The notes beneath the pieces were generated by a model. It had not been told where the DNA came from. It made no database searches and saw only the letters and a list, made by a program, of their open reading frames with translations. A stretch of 64,000 nt of DNA from a virus. How positions within the stretch are numbered: the stretch's first letter is position 1; the number at the start of each line of letters is the position of its first letter. A program made the position numbers and the translations under genes. Positions 13,855 to 14,307 of this stretch are shown here, one piece after another. The DNA is taken from the UHGV virus genome UHGV-0370399. One strand, 5' to 3'.

Positions 13855-14307
13855 ATGGCACGTAGCAGTTTGACTAAAGATATTCTTGAACCTTTAGTAA
13901 AGGGTTCAGTATCATTCAGAGAAGTGCTTATAAAGCTTGGGAGAAAACCATCAGGTGGTTCTCAGTCACATCTAAAGCGTGTTATAGAGAAGTTTGAAAT
14001 AGACACTTCTCATTTCCTCGGACAAAAGGCTGGTAAGATTAAAACTGTACCAAAAAGAAAGCCTGAAGAAATCTTAATTCTACGTGAATCTGGTGAAAGA
14101 GCAAGGTCTTCACAACTAAGAAGAGCTTTAATAGCATCTGGTATCGAATACAAATGCTCTAAATGCGGTCAGTTACCGGAGTGGTTGGGCAACCCTCTAA
14201 CTCTTGATGTTGACCACATTAATGAGAACTGGTTAGATGATAGAAAAGAGAATCTTCGGTTCTTATGTCCAAATTGCCACAGTCAATTCTCAAGGCATTT
14301 GATTTAA
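13855..14307 (+). CDS. HNH endonuclease (free-standing, homing-endonuclease-like) embedded in the tRNA array
   Basis: C-terminal motif CSKCGQ...DVDHINENWLDDRKENLRFLCPNCH (His-Asn-His with flanking Cys pairs); 150 aa. Confidence 0.7.
   Translation: MARSSLTKDILEPLVKGSVSFREVLIKLGRKPSGGSQSHLKRVIEKFEIDTSHFLGQKAGKIKTVPKRKPEEILILRESGERARSSQLRRALIASGIEYKCSKCGQLPEWLGNPLTLDVDHINENWLDDRKENLRFLCPNCHSQFSRHLI

Follow-up and report, generated by a model that had tools for sequence, protein, structure and literature searches.

An HNH endonuclease gene in the tRNA array of a Felix-O1-like phage probably travels with its own tRNA-Leu allele

In bacteriophage T4, the nuclease genes SegF, SegG and MobE, as well as MobA with the gene 60 bypass element, are said to sit beside their targets, with the carrier's variant of the target being co-inherited; Belle et al. 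2002 and Bonocora et al. 2011, of which the second is referenced in PMC8300805, reportedly describe them. SegB is a free-standing endonuclease encoded within the T4 tRNA cluster, its site includes the tRNA TpsiC motif, and it drives the inheritance of itself and of nearby tRNA genes (PMC2330249). HNH genes are linked to clustered tRNAs in phages and bacteria and have been proposed to spread them (PMC3185647, PMC6409571, PMC5966550, PMC8421152), and the Felix O1 genome contains six HNH copies (PMC3185647). Here we analyse a 64,000-nucleotide stretch of virus genome UHGV-0370399 (hereafter, the window), a Felix-O1-like (Felixounavirus-like) myophage in which an open reading frame (ORF) for an HNH endonuclease lies inside the tRNA array. 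To judge from its sequence, the element belongs to a kind already known, the free-standing homing endonucleases of phage tRNA clusters. What is unexpected is that a tRNA gene appears to have been replaced by a nuclease-plus-tRNA unit, and that the family is tied to tRNA-Leu genes in phages and bacteria alike.

ARAGORN predicts 15 tRNA genes on the plus strand of the window between 11580 and 14631. Exactly where an earlier note on this DNA had placed it, the ORF (13855-14307, plus strand) runs from an ATG start to a TAA stop at 14305-14307 and encodes 150 amino acids (aa), flanked by tRNA-Ser(UGA) (13496-13585) upstream and by a tRNA with anticodon UAG (14309-14385) downstream. The note had the ORF ending 2 nt before the next tRNA; there is a single base, T14308, between the stop codon and that gene. 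Since the anticodon 5'-UAG-3' reads leucine CUN codons, the downstream tRNA is not an amber suppressor.

When 5 kb around the site served as query, 331 GenBank phage records matched, most of them Felixounavirus; in 190 the match extended across at least 80% of the query length. The 257-nt spacer preceding the ORF is present in 258 GenBank records, and it continues into the HNH ORF in 10 only. The site exists in three states: a resident tRNA-Leu(UAG), allele A, with no ORF (158 records); a second tRNA-Leu(UAG), allele B, with no ORF (82 records; both counts come from junction-spanning queries of GenBank phage records); and the HNH ORF followed by allele B (10 records). The 10 carrier records fall in three genera, Felixounavirus, Suspvirus and Mooglevirus, and make up ~4% of ~250 relatives. 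There are 8 distinct carriers (the window, ECML-1, SP22, pSJ21, mistaenkt, PC79-13, EcSzw-1/2 and Michonne/Maleficent), and the ORF lies beside allele B in every one. In the HNH-less phage garuso the spacer runs directly into the allele A tRNA-Leu(UAG), GGGAGATTGACGGTAATTGG...TCTCCTACCA, and in the HNH-less phage wV8 the same spacer runs into the allele B tRNA-Leu(UAG), GCACCTATAGCCC...GGTGTACCA, which is identical to window positions 14309-14385. Identity between A and B is only 59%, and the 77-nt allele B tRNA of the window recurs in 85 GenBank phage records at ≥95% identity (54 at ≥99%).

Comparison of the junctions reveals the anatomy of the insertion. In HNH-less phages, ..GATTTAAT is followed by GGGAGATTGACGG.. 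at the A junction and by GCACC.. at the B junction. In the window, ..GATTTAAT is followed by GGGAGATTGAC, then AT-ATG...TTGATTTAA-T, then GCACC.. (at greater length: ..AAAAAGATTTAAT, GGGAGATTGAC, AT ATG ... CAT TTG ATT TAA T, GCACCTATAGCC..). The homology of all three states resumes at the tRNA 3' end, ACCA-AATTAATGCAGG. Specifically, nucleotides 1-11 of allele A are retained at 13842-13852, the remainder of A is replaced by the ORF and allele B, and the A stub provides a ribosome-binding site, GGAG, 8 nt before the ATG. As far as these junctions indicate, the ORF occupies the place of the resident tRNA-Leu(UAG) gene and not a neutral gap between tRNAs. The window is 467 bases longer here than the B-only state, and a 9-nt direct repeat, GATTTAATG (13834-13842 and 14301-14309), frames the additional sequence. 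The stub and the downstream junction are the same in all 8 distinct HNH-positive phages, which points to one ancestral insertion in Felix-O1-like phages.

These junctions also bear on the order of events. The insertion destroys A, leaving 11 nt, and the 5' junction of B is intact to position -9; we therefore infer that the original target was more likely A. If the two GATTTAATG copies recombined, the stub and the ORF would be lost and exactly the B-only allele would remain, which suggests the order A, HNH plus B, B-only. Loci L101 and L034, the nearest relatives outside the Felix-O1-like phages, share the ATTTAAT end of the ORF; this end is accordingly ancestral, and the 9-nt repeat thus owes part of its sequence to the ORF itself. 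That the native allele A leader ends in the same bases as the ORF may be the trace of an earlier visit.

Two side observations concern the same site. By eye, the native leader (13815-13842, GTTCTCTAAAAAGATTTAATG) loosely resembles the 3' end of the ORF (14281-14309, AATTCTCAAGGCATTTGATTTAATG) beyond the 9-nt repeat, a resemblance that could be the trace of an earlier HNH copy. In addition, allele A has sub-alleles that differ by a swap of the whole anticodon stem, ACCAT../..GTTGGT in garuso versus TCTCG/CGAGA in Felix O1 and Ro111lw (L001 2757-2834 versus L099/L100 3001-3078), and the B-like tRNA of locus L102 (594-671) bears the Felix O1-type anticodon stem; the tRNA-Leu alleles at this site look mosaic.

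The proposal, made from the letters alone, that the product is an HNH endonuclease agrees with profile searches. Pfam HNH (PF01844) matches residues 101-144 at 23.2 bits, above the curated gathering cut-off of 21.4, and PHROG 10822, 'HNH endonuclease', matches across the whole protein length at E = 4e-66. In an alignment of 43 homologues (53-72% identity), the CxxC pairs C101/C104 and C138/C141, which are zinc ligands, as well as D120-H121, N133 and H142, are invariant. The AlphaFold model built from the same alignment is confident (pLDDT 87.8): three N-terminal helices form a module (residues 8-47), which a linker joins to a C-terminal beta-hairpin and helix, this C-terminal part being a predicted zinc-bound beta-beta-alpha-metal nuclease domain. 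Profile score, catalytic and zinc residues, and the beta-hairpin and helix fold all place the protein in the HNH superfamily PF01844. It is not a SegB-type GIY-YIG enzyme, as its nuclease domain is HNH and its Pfam matches include no GIY-YIG family. A profile search of PDB sequences for solved relatives gave nothing below E = 0.38, NCBIfam holds no curated family for the protein, and PADLOC returned generic HNH and 'homing endonuclease' matches only. An Rfam E-value scan of 11000-15200 found tRNAs and sub-threshold noise only, with no group I or group II intron; the intron-encoded HNH class (I-HmuI, I-TevIII) is ruled out, there being no intron model that matches around the ORF.

The HNH gene is old, and purifying selection acts on the protein that it encodes. 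The synonymous divergence (dS) of the window ORF from those of Michonne and EcSzw-2 is 0.68-0.74, with a ratio of non-synonymous to synonymous divergence (dN/dS) of 0.03-0.06; against mistaenkt, dS is 0.17 and dN/dS 0.12. The gene has also been exchanged between genera. Across 13733-13842, a stretch of 110 nt just upstream, mistaenkt shares 99% identity with its congener EcSzw-2 (Suspvirus) and 70% with the window (Felixounavirus), whereas within the ORF the figures are 89.0% with EcSzw-2 and 95.1% with the window; downstream of the ORF, the tRNAs are alike once more in all. The recombination tract appears from these identities to coincide with the ORF, and the disagreement of the HNH gene tree with its immediate flank indicates horizontal exchange between phage genera. 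The earlier note had read the ORF as a mobile insertion, had suggested comparing the arrays of relatives for its presence or absence, and had named conservation in all relatives without an insertion signature as the outcome that would speak against this. The comparison gave the opposite: 10 of ~250 relatives carry the ORF at the site, an insertion signature is present, and gene and flank differ in history.

The relatives of the protein extend far beyond Felix-O1-like phages. A profile search of 1.84 billion representatives found 1,442 clusters (50% identity) at E ≤ 1e-30 and 11,610 at E ≤ 1e-10. Loci were picked by protein similarity alone, and ARAGORN was then run on each of 74 non-redundant viral loci (40-100% identity), 73 metagenomic loci and 80 bacterial loci. 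In the viral set, a same-strand tRNA lies within 100 nt downstream of the ORF at 52 of the 74 loci, and it is a tRNA-Leu in 34 of these 52 (p = 4e-10 against a Leu share of 24% at the same loci); upstream, 38 of the 74 have such a tRNA, 24 of them Leu, and 50 of the 74 have a tRNA-Leu on one or both sides. The tie is tighter in the other sets. In the metagenomic set, 48 of the 73 loci have a downstream tRNA-Leu (48 of the 54 with a same-strand tRNA within 100 nt), 37 of them UAG, and the commonest arrangement, at 21 loci, is a 10-nt overlap of ORF and tRNA, which makes the stop codon nucleotides 8-10 of the tRNA. In the bacterial set, a downstream tRNA-Leu is present at 72 of the 80 loci (72 of the 74 with such a tRNA), 58 UAG and 13 GAG. 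The bacterial loci come from Actinomycetota, Acidobacteriota, Planctomycetota, Cyanobacteria, Bacteroidota and Chloroflexota and have only about two tRNAs per 4.4 kb, amid ordinary flanking genes (histidine kinase, fatty-acid synthase, PQQ-repeat protein).

The nearest relatives outside the Felix group resemble the window in detail. At L101 (72% identical) and L102 (70%), the ORF stands directly 5' of a B-like tRNA-Leu(UAG), ...ATTTAA-T being followed by GCACC or similar. At L034 (77%, frameshifted), the ORF separates the 5' half of a tRNA-like gene from its 3' half, the acceptor strands being perfectly complementary, and the ORF region is not a group I intron. Attempts to rebuild the split tRNA gave a cloverleaf at many junctions, with an ambiguous anticodon, and the claim is kept to two complementary halves. 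Homologues of 58% identity precede an A-like tRNA-Leu(UAG) in the Pseudomonas phages phiPsa347 and PPSC2, and one of 57% identity directly precedes a tRNA-Leu(UAG) in Vibrio phage D69. T5-like phages, considered as further family sites, have an A-like tRNA-Leu(UAG), but the neighbouring ORFs are unrelated to the window HNH family.

From these data, we consider it probable that the ORF encodes an HNH endonuclease of the free-standing homing type, which has tRNA-Leu genes as its target and moves together with its own tRNA-Leu allele. Presence or absence at one locus, discrete boundaries, disagreement of gene and flank, and the lack of an intron are all as found for a free-standing homing endonuclease. 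The element would have entered the Felix-O1-like phages once, at the resident tRNA-Leu(UAG) allele A, keeping the first 11 nt of A as ribosome-binding site and exchanging the rest for the ORF and an intact allele B. The N-terminal helical module would bind DNA of the tRNA-Leu gene, and the HNH domain would nick or cut the HNH-less allele of a co-infecting relative. Repair off the HNH-positive genome would then bring into the recipient both the ORF and the tRNA allele linked to it, and later loss of the ORF, via recombination of the GATTTAATG repeats, would yield the common B-only allele.

Several points weigh against this account. The 9-nt repeat would also fit an insertion into a pre-existing B-only allele, and the sequence does not decide the order. 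The divergence of the ORF between genera is roughly equal to that of the neighbouring DNA, which, with the ~4% carrier frequency, means that part of the pattern is due to vertical inheritance and frequent loss of the ORF. The ORF is old yet rare, which is odd for an efficient drive unless alleles are mostly resistant or the ORF is often lost. Furthermore, about one third of the viral family loci adjoin other tRNAs (e.g. Val, Ser, Tyr, Met), and the conserved pairing of HNH gene and tRNA in bacteria could reflect co-function rather than targeting.

A bolder extension, which we put forward only tentatively, is that the unit is a natural 'cleave-and-rescue' cassette: the HNH enzyme might destroy resident tRNA-Leu(UAG) genes and bring a cleavage-resistant, often atypical (short variable loop) tRNA(UAG) as replacement, spreading via phage arrays and bacterial chromosomes and driving tRNA-Leu allele turnover. 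Where ORF and tRNA overlap by 10 nt, RNase P processing would remove the stop codon from the ORF, which would tie the dosage of the nuclease to tRNA maturation.

The strong and long-lasting purifying selection (dN/dS 0.03-0.12 at dS up to 0.74) would also be expected of a nuclease retained because it is useful to the phage and not selfish, excluding competing phages or stimulating recombination and amplification of the tRNA array. T4 SegB is reported in recent work to promote tRNA-locus amplification, which aids escape from a tRNA-cleaving defence (PMC13096335), and HNH genes are conserved beside, and co-regulated with, bacterial tRNA arrays (PMC8421152). Yet 96% of the close relatives are without the ORF, and we regard this alternative as unlikely; marker exclusion and homing are, besides, the same biochemical act, so that the two accounts differ more in emphasis than in explanation.

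Action at the RNA level would account for other features of the family. The protein might act on the tRNA-Leu transcript or pool, for example by damaging host tRNA-Leu(UAG) for which the linked variant substitutes, as a toxin-plus-rescue pair. Such a role would suit a pairing with a tRNA(UAG) gene that is almost universal and extends to ordinary contexts on bacterial chromosomes, the co-transcription of the ORF with the tRNA, often with overlap, and the atypically short length (74-77 nt) of about half of the bacterial linked tRNAs. However, the protein has the fold and motif of HNH enzymes that cut DNA, the scar and the replacement seen in the phage are a DNA-level event, and, to our knowledge, known anticodon and tRNA nucleases use other folds. 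We judge RNA-level action to be quite improbable. Still less credible is an inactive relic of a former homing endonuclease that drifts towards loss: the low frequency among relatives and the frameshift at L034 would fit it, but the catalytic residues and zinc ligands are all intact and invariant, dN/dS is far below 1, and the ORF is full-length in 8 of 8 distinct carriers. A terminase-associated HNH protein for DNA packaging (HK97 gp74 type), suggested by the ~750-nt gap in the window between the ORF end (14307) and the start of terL (15061), is effectively refuted by distribution, since the proximity results from a 2.3-kb deletion private to the window genome, ~3 kb of tRNA genes intervene in relatives, and 96% of relatives are viable without the ORF.

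That deletion bears on a further proposal of the earlier note, that the ORF may explain the patchy organisation of the array. The array of the window ends after a 'tRNA-Gly', and those of ECML-1 and similar relatives extend ~2.3 kb further, with two ORFs and 11 tRNAs that are absent from the window (Thr, Val, Leu-CAA, Arg-ACG, Gln, Leu-UAA, Gln, His, Phe, Ser-GCU and Cys). The deletion junction lies within a shared T-arm (GAGGGTTCGA), which makes the gene at 14557-14631 the 5' part of tRNA-Gly fused to the 3' end of tRNA-Cys; the fused tRNA has two acceptor-stem mismatches and the lowest Rfam tRNA score in the array, 43.6 bits. On this sequence evidence the 2.3-kb loss, the most obvious patchiness, appears to have arisen by recombination of tRNA-Gly with tRNA-Cys and not via the HNH ORF.

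The features of the locus are collected in Table 1. The ORF has its own Shine-Dalgarno sequence (SD), ATG and stop. A terminator had been proposed upstream of it at 13741-13764. The hairpin is real (13741-13760, 8 bp, -9.3 kcal/mol, z = -1.7), but it fails a terminator scan; it also lies within the 257-nt spacer that HNH-less relatives possess, and it is consequently neither carrier-specific nor part of the insertion. A longer hairpin in the spacer (13764-13827, in the region 13764-13834; -22.3 kcal/mol, z = -3.0) folds far better than shuffled controls, is ~70% conserved between genera as against 90-100% for its surroundings, and belongs to no Rfam family. The spacer was also considered as a decayed HNH gene and rejected as such: tblastn with the window HNH protein gave zero matches even at E ≤ 100, and other Felix HNH proteins gave noise only.

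Table 1. Features at and around the HNH insertion site of the window
Feature	Coordinates	Strand	Evidence
tRNA-Ser(UGA), upstream neighbour, outside the insertion	13496..13585	+	ARAGORN; 100% identical in HNH-less relatives
Non-coding spacer, conserved in HNH-positive and HNH-less relatives	13586..13841	+	258 GenBank records match 13586-13852; no Rfam family
Upstream copy of the 9-nt direct repeat GATTTAATG (native tRNA-Leu leader and first G)	13834..13842	+	Sequence; junction comparison
11-nt remnant GGGAGATTGAC of resident tRNA-Leu(UAG) allele A; holds SD GGAG, 13843-13846	13842..13852	+	Equals nt 1-11 of the intact tRNA in garuso and Ro111lw
HNH endonuclease ORF, 150 aa	13855..14307	+	Pfam, PHROG, alignment, AlphaFold model, dN/dS 0.03-0.12
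Downstream copy of the repeat GATTTAATG (last ORF codons and stop, T14308, first tRNA G)	14301..14309	+	Sequence
tRNA with anticodon UAG, allele B, 77 nt, 5-nt variable loop	14309..14385	+	ARAGORN; Rfam tRNA 57.3 bits

Further observations concern the wider family. Larger members (280-490 aa; P0138, P0143, P0163, P0167 and others) give two to four profile matches per protein, apparently tandem N-terminal helical modules before one HNH domain, an arrangement that would fit a modular DNA-binding array. In Nostocaceae, two members (L106 and L112, 2001-2849) lie within long tRNA arrays, between tRNA-Leu(CAG) and tRNA-Leu(UAG or AAG), and are extended at the C terminus by ~100 aa. Both could be counterparts of the HNH gene described next to the Anabaena trn operon (PMC8421152). 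At L034, a group I intron (RF00028, 59.5 bits, above the gathering score) is present at 3223-3488, ~770 nt downstream of the HNH homologue.

The linked tRNAs vary in shape. The 'tRNA-Leu' genes of the window and of L001 (2757-2834) are 77-78 nt long with a 5-nt variable loop, compared with the long-variable-arm class II shape of canonical bacterial tRNA-Leu. HNH-linked tRNA(UAG) genes are 74-76 nt in Nonomuraea, Streptosporangium, Microbispora and Planomonospora (loci including L108, L111, L113 and L126), and 82-87 nt in Rhodococcus, Acidobacteriota and Planctomycetota.

Unrelated ORFs abut tRNA 5' ends as well. Felix O1 ORF44 overlaps tRNA-Ile by 7 nt (L099 1056-1541) and ORF47 ends 1 nt before tRNA-Thr (L099 3339-3752), mistaenkt gp115 ends 6 nt before tRNA-Asp (L095 1024-1452), and a 157-aa ORF of the T5-like phage VAH1 overlaps tRNA-Lys by 10 nt (L263 503-976). 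To go by these arrangements, the 5' edge of tRNA genes seems to be a general landing place.

If the homing account is true, a very large uncharacterised nuclease family gains a concrete target, the tRNA-Leu genes, and an explanation is at hand for the occurrence, at a single site in Felix-O1-like phages, of one tRNA in two unrelated versions. A homing element would then remodel the tRNA repertoire gene by gene, beyond shuffling blocks, which is relevant because phage tRNA arrays are now seen as counter-defences against tRNA-cleaving host immunity. For annotation, 'tRNA-Leu' calls beside such ORFs may be structurally unusual cassette cargo.

The literature that we consulted makes general statements on HNH genes in tRNA clusters, and we found in it neither a family specific to tRNA-Leu nor an account of the stub-and-replacement anatomy. 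The bacterial and mycobacteriophage array HNH genes (Anabaena all8564; mycobacterial array units) are comparable in that cyanobacterial members of the window family lie within such arrays beside Leu tRNAs, but the papers on them report neither a tRNA-Leu-specific position nor an allele-replacement scar. The HNH genes of the Felix O1 group itself (ORF44, ORF45, ORF47 and wV8 gp50) share with the window ORF the same array and the same abutting of tRNA 5' ends (ORF44 at tRNA-Ile, ORF47 at tRNA-Thr). They belong, however, to different families: the best BLASTP match to the window protein has E = 1.6e-4 and covers the HNH motif only, and these proteins are without the N-terminal module. Unlike the intron-encoded I-HmuI and I-TevIII, the window ORF has no detected group I intron and has its own ribosome-binding site and stop.

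The closest parallels are in T4. Like SegB, the window ORF is a free-standing nuclease gene among phage tRNA genes that is absent from close relatives. Unlike SegB, which is a GIY-YIG enzyme of demonstrated activity that recognises the generic TpsiC motif, the window protein is known from sequence alone, is an HNH enzyme with a different, predicted DNA-binding module, and belongs to a family tied to tRNA-Leu genes by position. Like the intronless-homing cassettes SegF, SegG, MobE and MobA, the window nuclease gene lies beside its putative target gene with a variant target linked to it. In the window, however, what is linked is an entire heterologous tRNA gene, with 59% identity to the resident one, and not a few polymorphisms or an insert, and the stub of the old gene serves as a ribosome-binding site.
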